From a virus (Duplodnaviria > Caudoviricetes): DNA of 37,590 bases. The stretch lies in the IMG/VR virus record IMGVR_UViG_3300034095_000063, positions 1 to 37,590 of that record; one strand, written 5' to 3'. The notes under the pieces are model-generated. The model made no database searches and had not been told where the DNA came from. It was given only the letters and a program-made list of their open reading frames with translations. Positions within the stretch are counted from its first letter, which is position 1. Every line of letters starts with the position of its first letter. Shown here one piece after another: positions 862-35,687 of this stretch. Position numbers and translations under genes: made by a program.

Positions 862-1638
862 TTAATTTAAATAATCTTTGAAAGCTTGTGCATATTTTAC
901 TAACGTAGTTCCAGTAAGACCTGGAGCAGTGTTGACTTCAAATAAGAAGACTTTGTTGTCACGTTCTCGATAACCAATGTCAACAGCACCGAAGTCTAGA
1001 CCTAGAATCTTAACAGCCTTGATAGCTGCTTGCTCTATTTCTACTGGATAGTTAATGTCAGCACGAGCGTAGACATAACCGTTAGAGTGATTACGAATGC
1101 CTGTGTCACCACCAGTCCAATTAAGTCTACGTTTCTTTTGCTGAACATCTATGACCGACTCTCTGAATACATGAACACGATACTCATACTTATGTTTAGT
1201 ACCAAGAGTATACAAAGGTGCTTCGACTAGATCAATGATGTTCTTAGCTATTACTATACCACCTCCGCTGTGACTTGTCAAGGAAGTTCTACAATAGATA
1301 GACTCCTTGCCTAATCGTTCGCCCCCTTCTGTAGCTATGTAGAGCATGTTAGATGCATCATACCTAGTGGTACAATAGTTGGGTAGATAGGGATACTCAT
1401 TCTCATACAACAGATCAAAGGTCTTAAGCTTGTTACATGCAATAGCAATAGCACTGTGCTTATTTAGATCCTTCTCCGCATAAGGTACACTCTCCGACGG
1501 AGTAGAGTTGCCCCAGTTAATGATGATGTCCCGTCGTTTAGCCTCATATGTAGGGCGGATACGTTTAATGCCTAGAGCATTAGCTAGAGCTTTACCTGAC
1601 ATAGAGCCCATCTTGTATGGGAATAGTTTAAAAGTCAT
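862..1638 (-). CDS. ATP-grasp ligase (RimK/glutathione-synthetase-like)
   Basis: INWG, NKLKTF, EYRVHV, LGLDFGAVDI and FEVNTAPG motifs typical of ATP-grasp enzymes. Confidence 0.85.
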   Translation of the reverse strand: MTFKLFPYKMGSMSGKALANALGIKRIRPTYEAKRRDIIINWGNSTPSESVPYAEKDLNKHSAIAIACNKLKTFDLLYENEYPYLPNYCTTRYDASNMLYIATEGGERLGKESIYCRTSLTSHSGGGIVIAKNIIDLVEAPLYTLGTKHKYEYRVHVFRESVIDVQQKKRRLNWTGGDTGIRNHSNGYVYARADINYPVEIEQAAIKAVKILGLDFGAVDIGYRERDNKVFLFEVNTAPGLTGTTLVKYAQAFKDYLN

Positions 1639-2008
1639 ACACTACCTCCTTCTGTTTGAGTTTAGCTAACTGACGTTGCTTGAATCTAGTCTCCATCTGT
1701 TTAATCTTGATTGCAATACCACGCAACCTAGGATCATCAGGTAAAGGGTTAGCCTTAACATCTATACCAAGAGGACCTAACTTAGCTTCGTATGCATCTA
1801 GATTATACCCTCGAGAGGTAAGACAGATACCACCACATGTGTGGAAGTTCTGCTTATCTTCATGATCCCATTCAATAGATATTATACCCTCTACACCTCT
1901 ATCCATATGAAACTTAAGGACAGTCCCTGTCATACCTGCTAAGAAAGTTACATTATCATACTCAAAGTCATCTGTTACTACAACTTTATCACCTCTATTA
2001 TATTCCAT
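1628..2008 (-). CDS. Hypothetical protein
   Basis: 126-aa ORF tightly packed within the operon. Confidence 0.7.
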   Translation of the reverse strand: MEYNRGDKVVVTDDFEYDNVTFLAGMTGTVLKFHMDRGVEGIISIEWDHEDKQNFHTCGGICLTSRGYNLDAYEAKLGPLGIDVKANPLPDDPRLRGIAIKIKQMETRFKQRQLAKLKQKEVVYDF

Positions 2009-2010
2009 GA

Positions 2011-2919
2011 TTAGATTACTCCATAAGGATAAACAACTACTGGTTCTACTGGTGCCTCATAATCTTCTTCTAATAACTCAATGTCCATGAACTTGATGTT
2101 GTAGAGGAAGTTAGGAACATCAGAACCTTCATCAGCTGAGTCAGCCATTAAGTCTACTGAGTAGTCACGATTAACTGCAACGATCTCCCATACAGAATCT
2201 TTAGGGAAGTATGACCTAGTGCCAGCATCATACTGTCCACTAAGCAGAGTCACTAACTCACCTAGTGCTATGTTCTCTTTCTTGTAAGCCCAAGTTTGTT
2301 TGTTATCGTAGTAACGATTAGTAAGAAAAGAAGCTTGACGAGGTGGATAATATGTGCTAGGTGGTGGTGGAACATAAGGTGGTGGTTTCTTGTAACTAGA
2401 ATTAGAATACCATACATCGTTATCCCATACACCCTTGTCTTCATTGAAGATCTTAGTATTACCTGTGTTATCCATAAAGATTAGCTTGGAGTAACCGATA
2501 CGAGCCTCAATAAGTTTTTGTACTGGATCTTGGAATAAACCTAAGTTGCCCCACTTGTCAACGAATGGTTGTAGTATATCCTCATTGAATAACCAAGTGT
2601 CAGACTTAGCTGGATCAGTGTACCCTGAGATCATACCATTGTGCACGAATGCAAAGTTGTCATTGATCTTGTATGGATGACAGTTAGCCTCATTGATTAA
2701 GCCGTGAGTCTTGATACGGAAATGTATCACACACTCTTTCTTCTTATCTCTACGGTAAGACTTCCAGAAGTCAGCGAAAGAGAAGAAACCTTTCTTGACA
2801 TACAGTTTGTCATTCTTATGGAACATATAGCCAGCACCATCAGAGTTAGCTTTGTAACACTGAGCTAGAGTTTCTTGAGGAATCTCTTTACCCTCTGGTT
2901 TATAAATAGCGATACACAT
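2011..2919 (-). CDS. Class II (Ntn) glutamine amidotransferase
   Basis: N-terminal MCIAI nucleophile Cys; NSDGAG, HFRIKTHG, NCHPY, HNGMI and SDT motifs. Confidence 0.88.
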   Translation of the reverse strand: MCIAIYKPEGKEIPQETLAQCYKANSDGAGYMFHKNDKLYVKKGFFSFADFWKSYRRDKKKECVIHFRIKTHGLINEANCHPYKINDNFAFVHNGMISGYTDPAKSDTWLFNEDILQPFVDKWGNLGLFQDPVQKLIEARIGYSKLIFMDNTGNTKIFNEDKGVWDNDVWYSNSSYKKPPPYVPPPPSTYYPPRQASFLTNRYYDNKQTWAYKKENIALGELVTLLSGQYDAGTRSYFPKDSVWEIVAVNRDYSVDLMADSADEGSDVPNFLYNIKFMDIELLEEDYEAPVEPVVVYPYGVI

Positions 2920-4472
2920 TATGCGAATCCTTTCAAGCAGTTAGATAATTCAGGATATGATTTACGATTGTTAAGGACCCAATGCATAAAGCTACGATGT
3001 CCTGTAAGTTGTTTGAGTGGCATATTAACTTGAGCTGGTTGACAGTAGTCAGTCAATGCTTGACAGAACTCTAGTCTAGCAGAGAACTCCTCCCAATTCT
3101 TAGGTGTGCTAAAGATACGGAACTCAATAGTATCACGATTAGATAAGTTAAGTGCATTGTATCGTTCACCTTGTTGCCCATTAATGAATGGGAATGTAAC
3201 AGATCGACCAGTAATCCTAGCATACTGATTGTCAATACGACCAGCGATGTGAGCAATGAATGCTTTGTTATCCATACGATTAAGGAACTCTGTCATCTTA
3301 CCAATAGTAAATACATTAAGAGGCTTACGACTCACATGCACATGCATACCTGTGTTCTTGTCAGGGAATAGACCAAGAGAACCATATGAACTATAGAACT
3401 TCTTGAACTCTTCTAAGTGGATATCTAGAGTAGCAGGACAAGTAACAATCTCAAAGCCATTCTTGATAGAGCCATCGTGTTTCATAATGGCATGACCCTG
3501 TAAAGCTTTACCTACCTTGATCTTAGATACATCACGATCAGATGACTCATACTCTAACTCTATACCTAGATATACAGTAGAAGGTTTAACATTCTTAGCC
3601 TTGAACTTAAGAATCTCAGGAACTTTGGTGCTATAGTTATGAATCCTGTATAGAGTCTCATTACATTTGAAACATGCCCCATCTATGATAGATAAGTCAG
3701 GCACTTCGTTGTGGCATACAGGACACTCACACATAGTAACTTCACTACGTTTGTATACTCTACCTTGGATGAAGCACTCGTCATCACGAAGAAAGATATA
3801 GCCGTGACGATACTCGTGACGAGAGAATCCATAATCAGTAGGTGAAAGAGCACCATTTACCATACAAATACCTTCAGAGAACTCATAGTTTCTACCTAAG
3901 TAATAAGGTAATACTGTTCCTGTCAAGTGGCATTTGAATAATTCTATATTATAGTTGTTGCTCATGTGGTTTACAAGAGCATCAGCATCTGCAACAATTG
4001 CATCAGGTTGAGCAGATATAGCTATGTTAAGTAACTCATGAGTGTAACCACTCTTACACCATCTCTCTGAGTTTAGACGTTTAGATATTGCTTTGTATAT
4101 ACCTTTACGAAGTGCCCCAGTCTTTGATGTTAGTTTAACGGGATTGGATTTGTAATACATAGCATCTATTATAGCATGCTCACCATCCCAACTGTTACGA
4201 ATCTTAACTAAGCCAGCAGCTGCTGCTATAGTTGAATTGTAATCACGATACCAACCAGTGTGACTAATTGATATTACATGATACCATTCTTCATTGATAA
4301 TTGCCATATCTCTTGTAAGAGCCATAGCACTACCTTTGACATAATATTTCTTAAGTGTTACTTCTGTTCCATAACTATTGTAGCCCTCTACAATCTCCAT
4401 CTTAAAGTCTGGATGTAGATTAGGGATTTCATAATCATAGTTCCTAAATTGACTTTGGGTAAACGGTCTCAT
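2919..4472 (-). CDS. Putative amidoligase (COOH-NH2 ligase, glutamine-synthetase-like fold) with a long N-terminal extension
   Basis: GIELEYE, HDGSI..GFEIVT, TGMHVHV, RYNALN and TIEFRIF motifs; CPVC...CFKC just upstream of the ligase domain. Confidence 0.82.
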   Translation of the reverse strand: MRPFTQSQFRNYDYEIPNLHPDFKMEIVEGYNSYGTEVTLKKYYVKGSAMALTRDMAIINEEWYHVISISHTGWYRDYNSTIAAAAGLVKIRNSWDGEHAIIDAMYYKSNPVKLTSKTGALRKGIYKAISKRLNSERWCKSGYTHELLNIAISAQPDAIVADADALVNHMSNNYNIELFKCHLTGTVLPYYLGRNYEFSEGICMVNGALSPTDYGFSRHEYRHGYIFLRDDECFIQGRVYKRSEVTMCECPVCHNEVPDLSIIDGACFKCNETLYRIHNYSTKVPEILKFKAKNVKPSTVYLGIELEYESSDRDVSKIKVGKALQGHAIMKHDGSIKNGFEIVTCPATLDIHLEEFKKFYSSYGSLGLFPDKNTGMHVHVSRKPLNVFTIGKMTEFLNRMDNKAFIAHIAGRIDNQYARITGRSVTFPFINGQQGERYNALNLSNRDTIEFRIFSTPKNWEEFSARLEFCQALTDYCQPAQVNMPLKQLTGHRSFMHWVLNNRKSYPELSNCLKGFA

Positions 4473-4629
4473 TTACTTGCTCCTTAGTTGTTGATAAACT
4501 CGATACTAACTGTATCAAGGTCTTACGGTCTATACTACTACTACTTTTAGGAAGCCTTTTAAACTTCTTAAAATATGCATGACAGTATATCTCATTAAGA
4601 GTATCTGTCGAATAGCTAGAGAGATTCAT
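4444..4629 (-). CDS. Hypothetical protein
   Basis: 61-aa ORF with a purine-rich GGAGAAAGGG upstream; co-oriented with the operon. Confidence 0.5.
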   Translation of the reverse strand: MNLSSYSTDTLNEIYCHAYFKKFKRLPKSSSSIDRKTLIQLVSSLSTTKEQVNETVYPKSI

Positions 4630-4768
4630 AATAATCCCTTTCTCCTGTTAAAATACTGTGTTCCCCATTCCTATCCGTAAGGACTACATAACATACATTT
4701 GATGAAATGTCAACAGATATAAGAATAATTAACACACTCACTAATACTAATAGAAGTTTCATATTAGA

Positions 4769-4906
4769 TTATAACTTGTAATCGAAGAACTTACTAGATC
4801 TAGCTTTAGCTTTTCTCCGTTCTAAGATACTAATACAAAAATCACATACAGCAAACACACCGATAAGAAACATAATAAATACACACAATAAGATGTAGTT
4901 TTCCAT
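4769..4906 (-). CDS. Small putative membrane protein (45 aa)
   Basis: Hand-translated MENYILLCVFIMFLIGVFAVCDFCISILERRKAK...: hydrophobic helix plus basic tail. Confidence 0.5.
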   Translation of the reverse strand: MENYILLCVFIMFLIGVFAVCDFCISILERRKAKARSSKFFDYKL

Positions 4907-4907
4907 T

Positions 4908-5087
4908 TTAATATCCCCATTGCTCTTTTGATATTCTATTTCTAAAGATATCTACTTCTTTATAGATATCATCTAAGCCTATGTTGATAGGCTCACTATC
5001 TAACATTCTCCAACCTTCTTGCCAGAGATAATCAGACAGCTCAATTACTGGCTGAATCTCGTTGGTATATTTATTTATAACTCTCAT
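4908..5087 (-). CDS. Hypothetical protein (59 aa)
   Basis: Hand-translated MRVINKYTNEIQPVIELSDYLWQEGW...; SD AAGGAG upstream. Confidence 0.55.
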   Translation of the reverse strand: MRVINKYTNEIQPVIELSDYLWQEGWRMLDSEPINIGLDDIYKEVDIFRNRISKEQWGY

Positions 5088-5091
5088 GTGA

Positions 5092-5271
5092 TTAAATCTC
5101 CTTAATATAATTCATAGAGAAAGAGGAACAATCCCCATATGTTTGGGATAACTTCTTATTAGCCTGTTTAACTGCATCTTCCATAGATTGAGCTTCTATA
5201 TAGAACTCTACTTCTCTATGGAACTTATTAATTCTACTTATAAACAACACTTCATAACTAATCAACCCCAT
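5092..5271 (-). CDS. Hypothetical protein (59 aa)
   Basis: 3' part of track ORF 5092..5379; probable start MGLISYEV at 5271. Confidence 0.55.
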   Translation of the reverse strand: MGLISYEVLFISRINKFHREVEFYIEAQSMEDAVKQANKKLSQTYGDCSSFSMNYIKEI

Positions 5272-5350
5272 ATATGACCGTCTCTTTCTCTCTCTACAAT
5301 TAATAGATAACTCGTTAGAGAGAACCGAAGTCCTCTCCAACTTAGCGTGA

Positions 5351-5587
5351 TTAGGCTGTAGTGCCATTACTGCGTTCACGAGCTTCAGCTAATTTCTTTG
5401 CTTGCGCACGAATGTTTGTTATTTCATCACGAGCATCCATTAGCTCTTGAAACAGAGGCGATTTGTAACGAAGCATAGTAGCTAACGCATCACCGAGCAA
5501 CTGCTCTGCTAGGTATAGTTTAAGTCCGCTGTTAGCGTTTGCCATTACCTTGTTGTATTCATTGAAATCAAATTGCTGTGTTGCCAT
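5351..5587 (-). CDS. Hypothetical helical protein (78 aa), probably the first early gene; lies in the left arm of the rod
   Basis: SD AAGGAG 7 nt before ATG; intact ORF MATQQFDFNEYNKVMANA... Confidence 0.8.
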   Translation of the reverse strand: MATQQFDFNEYNKVMANANSGLKLYLAEQLLGDALATMLRYKSPLFQELMDARDEITNIRAQAKKLAEARERSNGTTA

Positions 5588-5817
5588 GGTAGTTCTCCTT
5601 AGTTAATGCGGCGGTTGCCACAGCTGTTAGAAACACAAAGACGAGGCGATGTCAGGTGATCTAGCCTTAGCAGGCTGCTGAGACGTAGAACAATGGCGTG
5701 CCTTTTCGACATTGTTCTAGGTCTCTTGCAGATGCTTAGGCTAGAGCACTTGATGTTGACTCGGCTTTGTGTTTCTATCAGCGCATTGGGGCAACAGCTG
5801 CATTAACTTAGGAGAAC

Positions 5818-5997
5818 TTGGCAACACAGCAATTTGATTTCAATGAATGCGCTTACAACAAGGTAATGGCAAAGGATAACGGTGGTTACTTAAACTTCCT
5901 AGCAGTGCTGTTGCTCGGTGATGCGATTAGCTACATGCTTCGTTACAAATCGACTCTGTTTCAAGATAAAGCTAATGCGATGGTCGTGATGAAGTAA
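5818..5997 (+). pseudogene. Degenerate inverted copy of the 78-aa gene (open for 59 codons from TTG)
   Basis: Reads (M)ATQQFDFNECAYNKVMAKDNGGYLNFLAVLLLGDAISYMLRYKSTLFQDK...; the ATG is lost through a 4-nt deletion. Confidence 0.55.
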
Positions 5998-6547
5998 CGA
6001 ACTTCGATGCGCAAGCTAAGAAATTAGTTGAAGCTCGAGGGTTGAACGCAGTAATGGCACGGCATCAGCCTAATCACGCTAAGTTGGTTAGAGGACTCGG
6101 TTATCTCTAACTAAGAGTTATCTCTCTATAAAATTACTTTAAACAACAACAACTTATCTAGATATTAATACAACTACTAAATACCTATAGAGGTACCACA
6201 CTACACATATCTTCTTCACCTAACAGACAAGACAATATGATACGCATGAGTAACAGCTAGACAATGCTACTTAACATTGACTTCGTTACTAGGTCACACT
6301 ACTAGATCAACATAGGGGGGGGGTGTATATAGCACGGATGTGGATTTTAATGATGTATCACAACACACACAATAAAGGGTAAAATAGAACGTCTCTGCAT
6401 AATGTGCTATCTTTGAACAAGAGAGGAGGGAAGGAGAGGTGATATAGACTATATCGATCTGCGACATTACTACTTAGTAGAAATCTCTTTCTATTTTAAA
6501 ACAGGAGTTTTAGAAGTAGAGTTTCTCTAATTGATCAATATAAGAAT

Positions 6548-6576
6548 ATTATATCATATTTCTAATCTAAAGTCAA
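6548..6576 (-). promoter_or_regulatory. sigma70-type leftward (early arm) promoter
   Basis: TTGACT-17 nt-TATAAT with extended -10 TG. Confidence 0.8.
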
Positions 6577-6624
6577 TATCCTTTCTCTCAAATATAAATA
6601 TATTCTTTCCTCTTCATAATTTAC

Positions 6625-6653
6625 TTGACTTTTAGTTTCTTCTATGTTATAAT
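6625..6653 (+). promoter_or_regulatory. sigma70-type rightward promoter (packaging operon)
   Basis: TTGACT-17 nt-TATAAT with extended -10 TG. Confidence 0.8.
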
Positions 6654-6694
6654 GATTACATAGTTAGTTAGATTTTCTATTGGAGCGAAGCGAC

Positions 6695-6964
6695 ATGCCA
6701 TACATGACGAACGGCAAACGAGATTATAAAAAAGAGTTAGACTGGGAACACGAACAAAGTAAGAAGCGTGTTAAAGACCGTGCTGCTCGTAATAAGGCTC
6801 GTAAAGAAGCTGGACTTAAAGTAGGAGACTCTCGTCAAGCTGATCACAAGAAACCTCTAGACTCTGGTGGTTCTACTAAGAAGTCGAACGTACGAGTCGT
6901 CTCGGCTAAAGAGAATGCAATGAAAGAAGTAAAACGTAAACGTTCTAAACCAGGTAATAATTAA
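6695..6964 (+). CDS. Small HNH-type endonuclease-like protein, packaging-associated
   Basis: DHKKPLDSGGS...NVRVVS..N HNH-like motif; upstream of terminase; likely ATG 6695. Confidence 0.7.
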   Translation: MPYMTNGKRDYKKELDWEHEQSKKRVKDRAARNKARKEAGLKVGDSRQADHKKPLDSGGSTKKSNVRVVSAKENAMKEVKRKRSKPGNN

Positions 6965-6983
6965 TCAAAAAGGAATACTATAC

Positions 6984-7181
6984 ATGGCTACAAAACCAAC
7001 CACTACTACTACTATGGGCTACACAAAGAAACCTTTAGTTAAAACAATGCCAGTTGTTAAAGAAGCAGTACCTAGTGAGATTGCTGATAAAATGCAGACT
7101 ATGCAAAACAACAGAGCAGCTAAGAACTATACTAAAACAAATCCTTCAGGTTATGCTGGTATCTCTTTTGATAAAGACTAA
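6984..7181 (+). CDS. Hypothetical protein
   Basis: 65-aa ORF with SD AAGGA. Confidence 0.65.
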   Translation: MATKPTTTTTMGYTKKPLVKTMPVVKEAVPSEIADKMQTMQNNRAAKNYTKTNPSGYAGISFDKD

Positions 7182-13486: not shown

Positions 13487-16261
13487 ATGGCGATATTTAG
13501 AGGTCCAGGAGGTAGTGGTGATGCTACGGCAGATACTTCTAATAACTCCATTACAGCTGTTAATGCTGCCAATGCTGCTCAAGCAAGTGCTACAGCTGCT
13601 GCTGCTAGTGCTACTTCTGCTAGTAACTCTGCTAGTTCTACAGCAGGTGATGTAGCTGCTGCTTCTGCATCTGCAACTAGTGCCTCTAACTCAGCCACTA
13701 CTGCTACTACTAAAGCTTCTGAAGCTAGTACTTCAGCAACTAATGCTGCTACATCAGCATCTACAGCAACTACCAAAGCAAGTGAAGCAGCTACTAGTGC
13801 GTCTAATGCAAGTACTTCTGCAGCTACTGCTACAACAAAGGCAAGTGAAGCTGCTGCTAGTGCTACCTCTGCTTCTGGTAGTGCTACTACAGCAACTACT
13901 AAAGCTAGTGAAGCTTCTACATCAGCTACTAGTGCATCTACTAGTGCTACAACAGCTACAACAAAAGCAAGTGAAGCAGCTACTAGTGCGTCTAATGCTG
14001 CTAGTTCAGCAACAAGTGCTTCAACATCTGCTACTAATGCAGCATCTTCAGCTACAGCAGCTAGTGGGTCAGCTACAACAGCTTCTACACAAGCAACTAA
14101 TGCAGCAGCATCAGCTACTACAGCCTCGACACAAGCCACCAATGCAGCGGCATCTGCTTCAAGTGCCTCAACATCTGCTGCTACAGCCACAACACAAGCT
14201 ACTAATGCTAGTTCTAGTGCAAGTGCTGCAAGTGGTTCAGCTACAACAGCAACTACACAAGCAGGAATAGCTACTACTAAAGCAGGAGAAGCTTCTACCT
14301 CTGCTACTAACGCTGCATCTAGTGCTTCTACTGCTACCACTCAAGCTACTAATGCTAGTACTAGTGCTACAAGTGCTTCAGGTTCTGCTACAACAGCCAC
14401 AACTCAGGCAGGTATAGCTACTACTGGAGCAACTACTGCAACTACACAAGCAGGTATTGCTACCACTCAGGCTACTAACGCTGCAACATCTGCTTCTACA
14501 GCAACTACACAAGCTGGCATAGCTACTACACAAGCTACTAATTCTGCTACAAGTGCTGCTGCATCTGCTGCTGCTCGTGATGCTGCCTTAGCTGCTTTAG
14601 ATTCATTTGATGATAGATATTTAGGTTCTAAGAGTTCAGATCCTACTTTAGATAATGATGGTAATGCTTTAGTATCAGGTGCTTTGTATTTTAATACAAC
14701 TACTAATAGTATGAAAGTATTTGATGGAAGCGTTTGGTTATCTGCTTATGCTTCTTTGTCAGGTGCTTTATTATCAACAAATAATTTAAATGACCTAACT
14801 AGTATATCAACTGCTAGAACTAATCTTGGTTTAGGAACTCTTGCTACGCAATCAGGTACTTTTAGTGGAACTTCTAGTGGTACTAATACTGGAGACCAAA
14901 TTAATATAAGTGGTAATGCTGCAACTGTTACAACTAATGCTAATTTAACAGGAGATGTTACATCTGTTGGTAATGCAACAACATTATCTGCAAGTGGTGT
15001 AACTGCTGGTTCATATACAAATACAAATATTACTGTTGATTCTAAAGGTAGAGTTACAGCAGCAGCAAATGGTTCTGCTGGAGGAGTTACTAGTGTAACT
15101 GCAACATCACCAGTAGTATCTTCAGGTGGTGCTACACCAGCTATAAGTATGGCAGCAGCTACTACGTCAGTTAGTGGGTATTTAACATCTACTGATTGGA
15201 ATACATTTAATGGTAAACAACCTGCAGGGTCTTATGTAACAGTAGGCGGTGCATTAGGTACACCATCAAGCGGTACTTTAACAAACTGCACATTTCCAAC
15301 GCTTAACCAAAACACCACAGGCAGTTCGGGTTCATGTACTGGTAACAGCGCAACGGCTACAACTTTAATTGGTGACCAATCAAATTGGGCATCATACCGT
15401 TCAAGTGCCGTGGCAAACATGTTAAGTTGGAAAAATTACGGTAATAGTCATATTATATTTGACGCTTCAGCATCAACATCGCCAACTGGAAGTGCGGTAA
15501 ATAACACAAATGCTCAAATTGCTTGGACAGGAACATATCCTACTTTAATGGGTTGGAACGGGACTAACACTTATGGTGTTAGGGTTGATTCAGCTAGAAT
15601 TAGCGATTCAACTTCAGGTTCATCAGCATCATGCACAGGCAACGCGGCAAGTGCATCATCTGTTGCCGCATCAGGCATTACAGGTCAAACAGGGATGTGG
15701 ACAAGTGCCGCAAGACCAGGGGCTTATCGTTTATATCGTAATGATAGTAATGACCCTTATAATATCCAAACAACTTGGAGTGCGGATGTAAGTGGATATT
15801 GGTCTTTGCGTGGATATTATAATGATACCTATCATGCCCCTTGTTATGTTGGATATGCTGGATATTCAAACACAGCAGGTTCAGCACCAGCAAATGGAGG
15901 CACATCTGCAGCTTGTTCAGGTAATTCAGCAACTGCTACAGCACTATCCACAGCTTCAGGTTCAGCACCATCATATTCAGCAAGGGCTTGGGTAAACTTT
16001 AACGGTACTGGTACAATTGCTATTCGTGCAAGTGGTAATGTCAGCTCATTGACAGATAACGGAGTCGGTAATTACACAGTCAATTTTACAACAGCAATGC
16101 CTGATGCAAATTATTGCACAACAACTGCATTAAGCAATGCAACTTATGCCCCTGTTAATATGATAGGAACATATACAACTACATCAGTACAGTTACAGAA
16201 TTTTGCTGATACAGTAGCGGCAAGGGATTTTACAACTGTAACTGCCGCTATACATAGATAA
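13487..16261 (+). CDS. Long tail fibre protein
   Basis: Ala/Ser/Thr repeat shaft, FDDRYLG...DNDGNAL and ITVDSKGRVT fibre motifs, C-terminal AWVNFNG domain. Confidence 0.85.
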   Translation: MAIFRGPGGSGDATADTSNNSITAVNAANAAQASATAAAASATSASNSASSTAGDVAAASASATSASNSATTATTKASEASTSATNAATSASTATTKASEAATSASNASTSAATATTKASEAAASATSASGSATTATTKASEASTSATSASTSATTATTKASEAATSASNAASSATSASTSATNAASSATAASGSATTASTQATNAAASATTASTQATNAAASASSASTSAATATTQATNASSSASAASGSATTATTQAGIATTKAGEASTSATNAASSASTATTQATNASTSATSASGSATTATTQAGIATTGATTATTQAGIATTQATNAATSASTATTQAGIATTQATNSATSAAASAAARDAALAALDSFDDRYLGSKSSDPTLDNDGNALVSGALYFNTTTNSMKVFDGSVWLSAYASLSGALLSTNNLNDLTSISTARTNLGLGTLATQSGTFSGTSSGTNTGDQINISGNAATVTTNANLTGDVTSVGNATTLSASGVTAGSYTNTNITVDSKGRVTAAANGSAGGVTSVTATSPVVSSGGATPAISMAAATTSVSGYLTSTDWNTFNGKQPAGSYVTVGGALGTPSSGTLTNCTFPTLNQNTTGSSGSCTGNSATATTLIGDQSNWASYRSSAVANMLSWKNYGNSHIIFDASASTSPTGSAVNNTNAQIAWTGTYPTLMGWNGTNTYGVRVDSARISDSTSGSSASCTGNAASASSVAASGITGQTGMWTSAARPGAYRLYRNDSNDPYNIQTTWSADVSGYWSLRGYYNDTYHAPCYVGYAGYSNTAGSAPANGGTSAACSGNSATATALSTASGSAPSYSARAWVNFNGTGTIAIRASGNVSSLTDNGVGNYTVNFTTAMPDANYCTTTALSNATYAPVNMIGTYTTTSVQLQNFADTVAARDFTTVTAAIHR
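13570..14575 (+). repeat. Degenerate ~42-nt (14-aa) coding tandem repeats in the tail fibre
   Basis: Recurrent ATTATTKASEA(A/S)TS and ATTATTQAGI units; boundaries approximate. Confidence 0.8.
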
Positions 16262-32959: not shown

Positions 32960-33247
32960 CTAGAAGGGAACATCGTCATCTCCTAAAGAAGTATTATTAA
33001 CTTCCGTGGTATTGACCCATTGTTCGTAACCTCTTTTATCTTCTTGAACCTCTACATCTACTTCGGTACCCTTAGTCCAACTACTCGCAGCTTTGTACAC
33101 ATGTTTGTTTTTCCAAGAGAATAATCTCCAGGATTTAACTTGGTCCTCAGTATCTCTAAAGATAACTTCTATGGCTTGATACTCTAAACCATTAGCTGCT
33201 TGATGGGCTGTGGGGGTACCTACATCCACAATTTTAATTCTAAGCAT
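32960..33247 (-). CDS. Hypothetical protein with an SSB-like acidic tail (DDDVPF)
   Basis: 95 aa; C-terminal DDDVPF. Confidence 0.65.
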   Translation of the reverse strand: MLRIKIVDVGTPTAHQAANGLEYQAIEVIFRDTEDQVKSWRLFSWKNKHVYKAASSWTKGTEVDVEVQEDKRGYEQWVNTTEVNNTSLGDDDVPF

Positions 33248-33957
33248 TTACTTCCTCCATGTTACCCCAATCAGGTCCTACTTCACACTGAACCCTCATA
33301 GGTAGGTTAAACTCCGTACCAAATATCTTTTTAAAGTTAGCTGGTACATCGTTGAAACAGTTATTAACTAACTGCACTAGACTAATATTATCCCATACTT
33401 TGGGATCAAAGTCAAGTATTATTGAGTCGTGTACTGTGTTTACCATTAAGACTCCTTCTTTACCTTTCAATCTGTTGCGTAGTGATACTCGAGCTAGAGC
33501 CATGAGATCAGCACCTAGCCCCTGTACTGGATAATTAAGTATCTTAGTACGAGGGAACTTAACCTTACCATACTTAACCTCAGGCTCAAACTTATAGAAT
33601 CTACCAGTAGGCATATCGATACGACCATCACGCATAGCACGTTCTAGCAGTTGATCATGCCATACCTTTAGTCCTGCGTACTTTTCGTAGAACTGGTCAA
33701 TGACTCCTTGCCAGAACGTTTCATCTCCAATACTTGAGAAGTTAAGATCATTCGCATAAGAGTACGCTGATCCTCCGTAGATGAGTCGAAACACGAACGT
33801 TTTAGCAATAAGTCGACTTGGTAGTCCAAATCGCTGTTGGTTGTCTGCATGTTGGTCTACTCCTAAAAGAATCTCATCGATAGCTACTTGATCTTGACTT
33901 AAGTATGTGGCTCCTACCCACTCAAGAAAGTTGTTTTGCATCCGCTTGGAGTAACAT
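33240..33957 (-). CDS. polA: Family A DNA polymerase, C-terminal (palm/fingers) part; frameshift near 33925
   Basis: Motif A MLLQADAKQL(EW) from ATG 33957; motif B RLIAKTFVFRLIYG; NYPVQG; motif C TVHDS; a 4-nt excess separates motif A from the main ORF. Confidence 0.85.
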
Positions 33958-34406
33958 CACTTTATATCCTCCTTCGAGAGAACTGATTTAGCGAACTGAA
34001 TTAACTCTTCTCTTGTAGAGTTCCACTTCATAGAGTTCGCTAAGGTAGATATAATTTCTATATTATCTTTACTATAACCTAATGAAGGGTCAATCCGATC
34101 TATTGAGGGAGAATGTTTCCTATCCCCAGCTATTGTTAATGGTACTTGTAAATAAGGGCATAACTCAGGAATAACTATATCTTCTTTAGTTAAAGAAAAC
34201 TCTATTCCTTTTTGTTTTGCTCTTAATTTTGCATATTTAAGTAGATAGTGTATAGGATCTACTACTTTAGTTTTATGATAGTAATCTCGTGCTCCTTTCT
34301 TTTTAGCTTCTCTATTCTCTTCAGCATATTTTTTGCGTTGTTCTGAATATTTATCATAGTTTTTTAAATACTCTTCTCTTCTTTTTACTGGATCATAAGG
34401 TTTCAT
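33957..34406 (-). CDS. HNH homing endonuclease-like protein
   Basis: CPYL...SIDRIDPSLGYSKDNIEIIS..AN.MK motif; visibly more AT-rich than the flanks. Confidence 0.85.
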   Translation of the reverse strand: MKPYDPVKRREEYLKNYDKYSEQRKKYAEENREAKKKGARDYYHKTKVVDPIHYLLKYAKLRAKQKGIEFSLTKEDIVIPELCPYLQVPLTIAGDRKHSPSIDRIDPSLGYSKDNIEIISTLANSMKWNSTREELIQFAKSVLSKEDIK

Positions 34407-34431
34407 TGGATTCTCCTAGTGTTATACTAAT

Positions 34432-34460
34432 AGTATACCATAAGTTTCCATTCTAGTCAA
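34432..34460 (-). promoter_or_regulatory. sigma70 promoter inside the HNH cassette
   Basis: TTGACT-17 nt-TATACT with extended TG; the -10 overlaps the palindrome TATACTA-A-TAGTATA. Confidence 0.75.
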
Positions 34461-34535
34461 GTACTTTCTGCTTGTAGTAACATCTAGTAGAGATCCTCCC
34501 ATAATCGTTCGATATAAATATCTTTCTCGTATGCA

Positions 34536-35687
34536 TCAAGTAAAGCGAGAATAGAAGAGACCTTTGATTCCTCCGTCGAAGTTTTGCAGGTTTGGTTTAC
34601 TACTTGACAGACGTCCTGTACGAGCGACGCATTGATTAAGTTGTCCATGTATCTTGTTCTCCTTCCAGTTAAGTTCAGCGGATAGCTTGAGCAATCCTCT
34701 GTAGTACGTTGATACTCTCTTCTCTAACTCTGATCTCTTTAAGAGAGTTTGAATAGCTTTGAGAGAGTGTTGATTCCTACTCTTGAGAGACTTAAGTGTA
34801 GCCTCATCAGTAGAGAAGTAACCTTCTTTAGCTAACTCTGAACCTCTAGGAGGAGTAAAGAGTCTTGGTAATTCAACTACATAGTCTTCCCACTTTTCTT
34901 TGACTTCTCCTTTACGAGCACCTGTCTTGTAAAACCCAGCAGGTACTTTGCGAGAAAGCTTAATGCTTCCGCCATAAAGTAAGCAACTGAGATGATCACC
35001 GCTATTGGGATTAAAACTATCACAGTTATGGTACTGATACAACTCGTTATCCAACTCGACGATTTGTGCATCCAATTCATTTGCTAATTCCTCACTCTTT
35101 GTTGCGTTATATAATAGACCATTGTATTCCATTTCTTGTAGTACAAGTAGGTCTTGATTGTGTAAACTAATTAGTCGTTGTAGTGGTAGACCACCAGCTT
35201 TAACTTCTTCTAACTGTTTGAGATATACTTGGTACGTTAGATCTAAGTCACCTTGTAGATACTCTTCTAAGATAGATTTAGGTATGTCTGGTGTATCTAT
35301 TCCATTCTTCCAATACTCAGTACTAACCACATCAAGCTTAGTACCCAGCCCATAATGAGCAGCGACACCATTGAGAGATGGGTAGCTTGCCTCTTGTCCA
35401 GTAAGTATAAAGTGTACAAGCTGACAATCCCAAATACGTTTAGAGCCAAAAGAAATTCCATATCTGTTTATCCAATGTAAGTCAAACTTAATGTTGAACC
35501 CTATAAGTATATCACAATCATCAATCCTTTGTTGGATCTCTTGAAGCTTAGGTACATAGGGATCATGAGAGTATTCTATATCGAATAGTTTATCTCCGAT
35601 GCCTACATAGCACAGCTTGTTAGTCTGATCAAAAGGATTACCTTTGTTAGAGATTGTTGTTTCTACGTCTAGTACTAACTCTTTCAT
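34536..35687 (-). CDS. polA: Family A DNA polymerase, N-terminal part (3'-5' exonuclease and thumb)
   Basis: ExoI DVET, ExoII GFNIKFD, ExoIII YLQGD; FNPNS; TGRLSSSKPNLQN. Confidence 0.9.
   Translation of the reverse strand: MKELVLDVETTISNKGNPFDQTNKLCYVGIGDKLFDIEYSHDPYVPKLQEIQQRIDDCDILIGFNIKFDLHWINRYGISFGSKRIWDCQLVHFILTGQEASYPSLNGVAAHYGLGTKLDVVSTEYWKNGIDTPDIPKSILEEYLQGDLDLTYQVYLKQLEEVKAGGLPLQRLISLHNQDLLVLQEMEYNGLLYNATKSEELANELDAQIVELDNELYQYHNCDSFNPNSGDHLSCLLYGGSIKLSRKVPAGFYKTGARKGEVKEKWEDYVVELPRLFTPPRGSELAKEGYFSTDEATLKSLKSRNQHSLKAIQTLLKRSELEKRVSTYYRGLLKLSAELNWKENKIHGQLNQCVARTGRLSSSKPNLQNFDGGIKGLFYSRFT

Follow-up and report, generated by a model that had tools for sequence, protein, structure and literature searches.

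Single-strand promoters are known from conjugative plasmids, which arrive in the recipient as a single strand of DNA. Hepatitis delta virus, viroids, and obelisks form a rod with regular bulges and one open reading frame (ORF) on one side, and in fold-back–inhibited type I toxin mRNAs, which usually encode small membrane-active toxins, the start region is paired with a distant complement. The Frpo/ssi elements of F, ColIb-P9, and other conjugative leading regions are described as long imperfect hairpins of the template strand that precede the first genes to be expressed; they fold on the entering single-stranded plasmid DNA, rebuild −10 and −35 boxes for host RNA polymerase, and cease to act once the DNA has become duplex (PMC9849209, PMC11541004). 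In N4, a tailed double-stranded DNA (dsDNA) phage, the first genes are described as being read by a phage-encoded virion polymerase from short template-strand DNA hairpins that are stabler than their complement (PMC4496689). Bacterial RNA polymerase is reported to proceed only ∼20–30 nt on single-stranded templates, and displacement of the RNA is reported to need upstream rewinding, as shown for an archaeal enzyme (PMC2241882); the N4 virion polymerase, which meets the same RNA:DNA hybrid problem, is described as using SSB (PMC4496689). In the literature searched, which included few subscription papers, there was no description of a gene-length mirror or of a host-polymerase single-strand promoter in a tailed phage.

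Here we follow up an earlier note on a fold-back element that contains a whole gene. The stretch of DNA analyzed, referred to below as the window, is 37,590 nt long (IMG/VR record IMGVR_UViG_3300034095_000063) and is a complete circularized phage genome with a 129-nt end overlap.

Geometry of the Fold-Back Element

In a global alignment, positions 5305–5695 of the window and the reverse complement of 5710–6123 form an imperfect inverted repeat, end to end: across 424 columns the two arms make 351 Watson–Crick matches and 30 mismatches, with 43 gap columns (33 + 10). The earlier note had described such a mirror, with the leader, Shine–Dalgarno (SD) sequence, 78 codons, and stop of one gene all in the left arm, and both the alignment and the placement of ORF 5351–5587 (−) bear it out. 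RNA folding of the two strands of 5280–6150, a check that it had proposed, gives one unbranched rod in each case, at −573.8 kcal/mol (z = −52) for the + strand and −526.3 kcal/mol (z = −43) for the − strand, far below the shuffles (0 of 20 equal for either strand). The parts of the element are as follows.

5305–5695, + strand: left arm, in which the + strand is template for leader, gene, and 3′ hairpin
5314–5341, − strand: 12-bp hairpin with a C(UUCG)G loop, directly past the stop and at the rod foot (coordinates from the sequence)
5351–5587, − strand: gene for a 78-aa three-helix protein, first of the leftward (replication) arm
5557–5586, + strand: longest perfect helix, 30 bp, partner 5819–5848
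5587–5590, + strand: 4-nt bulge covering the A of the start codon
5595–5600, − strand: SD AAGGAG of the 78-codon gene (read from the sequence)
5696–5709, + strand: apex, with a G.A mismatch, a 2-bp stem, and an 8-nt loop at 5699–5706
5710–6123, + strand: right arm, the mirror copy covarying with the gene; proposed stand-in non-template strand
5818–5997, + strand: pseudo-ORF of 59 codons with a TTG start, in the mirror arm

The length given in the note for the longest perfect helix is correct, and perfect helices never run beyond 18–31 bp across the elements compared, a cap that perhaps reflects avoidance of hairpin nucleases or of deletion. The bulge that it had pointed out at the A of the ATG is present in the window, but within this bulge base 5589 is the sole position unpaired in all nine aligned elements. 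The pyrimidine-rich 8-nt apex loop differs in sequence between relatives. The hairpin at 5314–5341 is a 3′-end or terminator-like hairpin of the mRNA; in the window it is without a clear U run. The rod shape, the regular bulges, and the single ORF along one side recall hepatitis delta virus, viroids, and obelisks. Of the hepatitis delta analogy that had been drawn for the element, the shape holds, but the element is part of a DNA genome and no ribozyme was found by Rfam: a scan of 4400–7000 at E ≤ 1 returned one weak match (E = 0.53), outside the rod.

The Gene in the Left Arm and Its Protein Family

The 78-aa protein is modeled confidently as three helices (pLDDT 92.5) and belongs to a family of ∼60 clusters at 50% identity. 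A search among 50%-identity representatives gave 66 matches to the family; two of these are unrelated long repeats, and three are translations of mirrors. No Pfam or PHROG family was matched at E ≤ 0.001 by any of 56 members, with two weak single matches at E 0.001–0.005. The model matched no PDB fold at E ≤ 0.001, its BFVD structure matches were to uncharacterized phage proteins only, and the best score in an Atlas structure comparison was 0.77. A tblastn search with the window protein matched no cultured phage, and a genome match in L184 (45% over 48 aa, among the matches listed) was judged spurious. The position of the gene at the head of its arm points to a factor that acts at once in host takeover or in end protection.

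Gene callers already annotate the mirror arm as protein: the database proteins P0003, P0020, P0026, and P0028 are mirror-arm translations. We considered and rejected the mirror as a second gene. Across nine elements its SD or start is lost in different ways, and the position of its first stop varies from codon 9 to past codon 80. The pseudo-ORF at 5818–5997 is probably not a gene, since neither its start context nor its stop position is conserved.

Genome Context and the Inferred Early End

The leftward arm carries genes for amidoligase, glutamine amidotransferase, primase, helicase, a split PolA, exonuclease, and ribonucleotide reductase, and the rightward arm, from 6680, those for terminase, portal, capsid, and tail proteins. 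Three features lie between the rod and the rightward arm.

6312–6323, + strand: conserved G-run between the divergent arms, a candidate genome-end or terminase signal
6548–6576, − strand: sigma70-like promoter TTGACT-17-TATAAT, directed toward the rod from beyond the G-run
6625–6653, + strand: sigma70-like promoter TTGACT-17-TATAAT of the packaging and structural arm

The element had been placed at the head of the early arm near divergent promoters; the gene is indeed first in its arm, with the promoters ∼425 nt away. The leftward promoter at 6548–6576 is conserved in the close clade and absent from MEP401, MEP402, and distant loci. The G-run recurs in 24 of 25 related loci examined. Cobaviruses are described as having short terminal repeats whose 5′ part is G+C-rich and conserved, and they have been proposed to form 3′ single-strand ends (PMC6775973), and the annotated left terminal repeat of the cobavirus ICBM1 opens with C-runs in the early-gene sense. 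By analogy with these C-runs, the G-run likely marks the physical early end, which we infer to lie near 6340, ∼200 nt from the rod foot, with the 3′ end of the + strand there. No fold-back was found in ICBM1, ICBM2 (also a cobavirus), or ICP2. The published inverted repeats of SIO1 are 98–100% identical, unlike the imperfect arms of the window, and we set aside a reading of the element as a repeat of that kind.

The best DNA matches of the window are to lake-water metagenomes, and the host is probably a freshwater methylotroph. Directly downstream of the element, 862–4472 holds a cassette of ATP-grasp (RimK-like), glutamine amidotransferase, and amidoligase genes. DNA polymerase A is split into two ORFs (33240–35687) with an endonuclease VII/HNH-like ORF between them (33957–34406); it is also split in MEP401, where a different small ORF separates the halves. 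A tail-fiber gene at 13487–16261 has a long Ala/Ser/Thr repeat region (13550–14590) of 21- and 63-nt units. In two related phages, an inter-arm palindromic segment has a second match, in inverted orientation, within the helicase gene region (L139, 18626–18753 and 13730–13908; L138, 48497–48660 and 31752–31908).

Maintenance of the Mirror Copy

All 10 IMG/VR loci whose protein is 92–99% identical to that of the window keep the rod, each with its own diverged copy across the apex, a check that the earlier note had proposed for homologues. The rod is therefore real and not an assembly artifact; an inverted terminal repeat was likewise rejected, the arms being imperfect and strand biased. In nine distinct elements, 47 of 77 variable left-arm columns realize at least two different Watson–Crick pairs. 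The 182 minority alleles divide into 137 with a matching base in the mirror, 25 opposite which the majority base is kept, 17 with some other difference, and 3 opposite gaps; these cells tally sequences rather than events, and arm-to-arm conversion could account for some. In an RNAalifold consensus, 48 of 332 pairs show changes on both sides.

A significant upstream inverted copy is present at 11 of 20 homologue loci (with the non-homologue L111 dropped; L115 and L116 are near-duplicates) and at 10 of 33 scored metagenome loci, a set that overlaps the first, leaves out 7 of 40 loci with too little flank, and retains L183, which resembles a non-homologue. The mirror is retained in homologues whose protein is ∼48–58% identical to that of the window, and at several distant loci the detectable mirror spans the first 70–210 nt of the gene only. 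The long mirror is absent from the other loci (9 of 20 and 23 of 33), mostly in one subfamily, so the protein does not need it. Homologues without a partner had been named as what would refute the idea; such loci do occur, and the close clade keeps the mirror throughout. At the mirror-less loci L117, L129, L040, and L083, a short GC-rich hairpin is found instead, ∼35–70 nt upstream of the gene and immediately before the SD; its loop, read on the template strand, is GCA, GCAA, or similar.

The cultured Methylophilales phage MEP401 (OP830906.1, locus L134; Zobellviridae by its record) carries a fold-back of its own. Its gp01, found via the neighboring amidoligase rather than by direct protein match, is a distant member of the family (hhalign probability 91%, E = 1e-6 against the family profile). 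The element lies across the record junction.

MEP401, ∼42530–42987 and 1–310: 770-nt fold-back, 72% arm identity (E = 1e-87), spanning all of gp01 and reaching the terminator hairpin

MEP401 and MEP402 (L133) share the two-arm layout of the window. Nine replication-module proteins of the window are 53–77% identical to those of MEP401 and the amidoligase 34%, and its terminase and capsid have no match there, which resembles “group II” of PMC10580990. The words “inverted,” “promoter,” and “terminal repeat” are absent from the main text of that paper. The mirror runs to 28–45 nt beyond the stop codon in the window, in L095, and in MEP401, where it ends at the mRNA 3′ hairpin and is thereby linked to the transcription unit.

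A neutral inverted duplication, kept alike by template switching or gene conversion and without function, would account for the blocks of several bases that change jointly in both arms, as conversion would yield, and for the lack of a mirror in one subfamily. However, conversion in duplex DNA cannot give the one-strand mismatch bias described below (46:2 and 20:3), 45 columns are unpaired or shifted in all nine elements, perfect helices are capped, and the mirror persists at the protein distances just given and in MEP401. We regard this reading as very improbable. The gene and its own complement are a maintained pairing, as had been proposed, on the evidence of covariation and of distant homologues that include a cultured phage.

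The Strand and the Molecule Predicted to Fold

The + strand is antisense to the gene and thus its template. Read on this strand, the 30 mismatches of the window are all G.T, G.G, G.A, or T.T, with no A.C, C.C, C.T, or A.A: 10 of 10 transition mismatches are G.T, and 20 of 20 transversions are T.T, G.A, or G.G. Isolated mismatches in 11 loci (the window, nine distant homologues, and MEP401, which are related and so not fully independent) show the same bias on the + strand, with G.T 46 versus A.C 2, G.A 20 versus C.T 3, G.G 10 versus C.C 1, and T.T 19 versus A.A 7. Mismatches thus favor folding of the template strand and not of the mRNA, a bias that had gone unnoticed in the first description of the element. 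Conversely, the − strand rod has almost no G.U pairs (0–3 in 9 of 10 elements, 7 in L005).

Whether DNA or RNA folds can be addressed with nearest-neighbor energies. The G.T and G.G biases do not tell the two apart, but the G.A bias does: in the real contexts, G.A is worth −1.7 kcal/mol over its opposite-strand form with DNA parameters and 0.0 with RNA parameters. T.T over A.A is worth −0.05 kcal/mol with DNA and −0.35 with RNA parameters, so that the 19:7 excess is unexplained by the former and leans slightly to RNA. On balance we favor DNA over RNA as the folded molecule, at roughly two to one. In a loop census, C-GNA-G triloops number 17 on the + strand versus 8 on the − strand and GNRA loops 16 versus 10, a skew too weak to decide between DNA and RNA.

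A structured RNA of the + strand was weighed in two forms: an 820-nt antisense rod acting as a double-stranded RNA (dsRNA) decoy or RNase III sponge, and a short mirror RNA made from a right-arm promoter in duplex DNA. The G.U and G.G biases fit it equally well and the T.T excess slightly better, and the right-arm promoters of L091, L041, and MEP402 would drive rightward transcription from duplex DNA. Against it, RNA parameters give the isolated G.A mismatches no advantage in energy over C.T, the rod is not flanked by any convincing promoter or terminator of the + strand, and no Rfam family matches. We think such an RNA quite unlikely, and the decoy role suggested in the note is disfavored by the same G.A bias, which is unexpected where C.T would carry no energy cost. 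A + strand promoter at ∼5295–5300 (TACAAT) was rejected; its spacing is 15 nt, it is not conserved in L004 or L005, and it overlaps the ribosome-binding site of the next gene. Contigs from six RNA-library runs, which represent at most four samples (the records of X21 and X22 are identical, as are those of X23 and X24), cover parts of the gene (5313–5638) and none of the mirror arm (5710–6123). Contigs of X23/X24 also cover non-coding 6311–6668, so DNA may be present in them, and the run records, which hold assembled contigs only, list no joint over the element. We set the gap over the mirror aside; a hole in contigs proves nothing.

The other role suggested for a folded RNA was a translational lock, in which a − strand transcript from 6548–6576 would carry the mirror first and fold over the SD and ORF, so that the message for a harmful early protein is silenced or destroyed until processing takes place. 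Fold-back–inhibited type I toxin mRNAs resemble the element in pairing the start region with a distant complement. In favor of the lock, the close clade conserves the promoter, a fold of −526 kcal/mol remains available to the − strand RNA, and the SD is paired while the start region is interrupted. But the lock needs a folded − strand mRNA, and 30 of 30 mismatches stabilize the + strand; the scarcity of G.U pairs on the − rod is the opposite of a selected RNA fold; and MEP401, MEP402, and distant loci are without the promoter. Unlike in type I toxin mRNAs, the strand selected to fold is the template, and a rod in the mRNA would be in competition with that molecule's own 3′ hairpin. As the main function of the element we find the lock doubtful. 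The conserved promoter does point through the rod on the mRNA strand, and a lock on this read-through RNA may therefore operate alongside a single-strand promoter, as a secondary off-switch.

Promoter Sequences in the Predicted Template-Strand Fold

Seven to eight relatives with a 97–99% identical terminase and enough flank are without the gene. In L016, L020, L021, L034, L035, and L062, a non-coding hairpin of ∼280–300 nt lies just upstream of the first leftward gene, where the window has its rod; gene-less L019 has a shorter hairpin, and L036 and L055 have little structure. Four of these hairpins carry full promoter boxes.

L016, 4165–4446: non-coding sister fold-back
L020, 2572–2868: non-coding sister fold-back
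L035, ∼3060–3340: non-coding sister fold-back
L062, 1712–1990: non-coding sister fold-back

The template fold of each brings together TTGACA and TATAAT (12/12) at a spacing of 18–20 nt; TTGACA is implied by the template arm and TATAAT lies on the other arm with 3–5 of its 6 bases unpaired, and neither arm alone holds the 12/12 promoter. In their anatomy they closely match Frpo/ssi, as does MEP402, and are the clearest Frpo-like promoters among the loci here. The MEP402 hairpin, a short one on the template strand upstream of gp02, folds into TTGACA-16-TACTAT (10/12) with 5 of 6 bases unpaired. Further long or nested inter-arm inverted repeats, unrelated in sequence to the window rod, were seen at L020:2943–3072 and L021:3546–3675, and others, likewise unrelated, within the 0.5–1.8 kb that precede the terminase gene in L047, L048, L053, L063, and L079.

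The corresponding candidates in the window are weaker.

5650–5655, − strand: −35-like hexamer CTGACA (5/6), fold partner TTGATG at 5750–5755
5776–5781, + strand: candidate −10 TATCAG (4/6) in the mirror arm, 20 nt from the −35; weak

With its 20-nt spacer, this folded promoter scores 9/12, which equals the maximum of the opposite-strand control over 21 loci, and the 15 gene-containing rods, the window among them, score 7–9/12, none above the control. The scan rejects hexamers with bulges, and it missed linear mirror-arm sites in L091 and L041 (TTGCAA/TTGTCA-16/17-TATAGT/TACAGT). The −35-like hexamer stays at 5/6 through four variants, CTGACA in the window and ATGACA, TTGACT, and TTGACG in relatives. 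Support for a folded promoter is thus good at the level of the locus but weak in the window itself. The lack of an ordinary early promoter was discarded as support, being uninformative, since ICBM1 and ICBM2, which have no fold-back, are also without a site of at least 10/12.

The same DNA and strand evidence would serve a reading in which folded single-stranded DNA protects the end or primes replication and has no part in gene expression. The 3′ tail would fold to resist nucleases and RecA/SSB loading, or host RNA polymerase would lay a primer as at single-strand origins, and the gene would be in the arm only as the nearest sequence. The gene-less sister phages also bear several + strand hairpins here, and Frpo reportedly makes replication primers too, going by the title of Masai and Arai 1997. 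On the other side, the mirror ends at the mRNA 3′ hairpin in the window, L095, and MEP401, and the phage encodes its own primase and helicase. We rate this reading as unlikely.

Discussion

Our preferred reading, to which we give a probability of about 0.5, is that the template strand folds into a 400-bp hairpin from which host RNA polymerase transcribes, a single-strand promoter of the Frpo kind whose stem encompasses a whole gene. Of the three roles offered in the earlier note, a folded template for host RNA polymerase fits best. Near the inferred early end, the + strand would be left single and would then be predicted to fold. It might be exposed by 5′ resection of the entering end, as the unreplicated end of T7-type linear replication, or by supercoil-driven strand separation, as in N4; this proposed single-stranded state near the early terminus is the weakest link of the mechanism. 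The fold would assemble a −35/−10 promoter from both arms, as seen in the sister hairpins and weakly in the window. The mirror would act as a stand-in non-template strand that re-anneals behind the polymerase and frees a translatable mRNA. Bacterial RNA polymerase stalls in the RNA–DNA hybrid on a bare single-stranded template, which would be why the mirror reaches the 3′ hairpin, and a stand-in role would explain its end shortly past the stop. The non-coding, co-evolving mirror would thus make one strand a complete transcription unit of promoter, gene, and terminator, a snap-back gene, whose first protein could be made even with the complementary strand absent or degraded by the host; once the DNA was ordinary duplex again, the single-strand route would be off.

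The element would therefore work like Frpo, while differing from it in its position over a gene and in a non-conjugative genome. Frpo lies upstream and is non-coding, whereas the window hairpin takes in the leader, the whole gene, and the 3′ hairpin, and the window is a tailed dsDNA phage (terminase, portal, capsid, PolA) with no known single-stranded transfer. With N4 it shares a tailed dsDNA phage genome and a template-strand hairpin, stabler than its complement, at the first genes. The N4 hairpins are described as short and read by the virion polymerase (PMC4496689), with short stems and G-N-A loops, whereas the window hairpin is ∼400 bp with a pyrimidine-rich apex; none of the 54 window ORFs matched an RNA polymerase among the PHROGs, the largest (981 aa) being without assignment.

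We tentatively propose that a lineage of tailed dsDNA phages that includes MEP401 has both a programmed single-stranded stage at its leading end and a snap-back gene. MEP401, with its gene-length mirror, and MEP402, with a short hairpin only, infect the same non-pathogenic host (Methylophilales FZCC0133), which makes the single-strand promoter idea directly testable. If it is true, tailed dsDNA phages would use a single-stranded leading end as a template for gene expression, whether as part of their design or in answer to end-resection by the host, and a stand-in non-template strand would solve the stalling of bacterial RNA polymerase on bare single-stranded templates.
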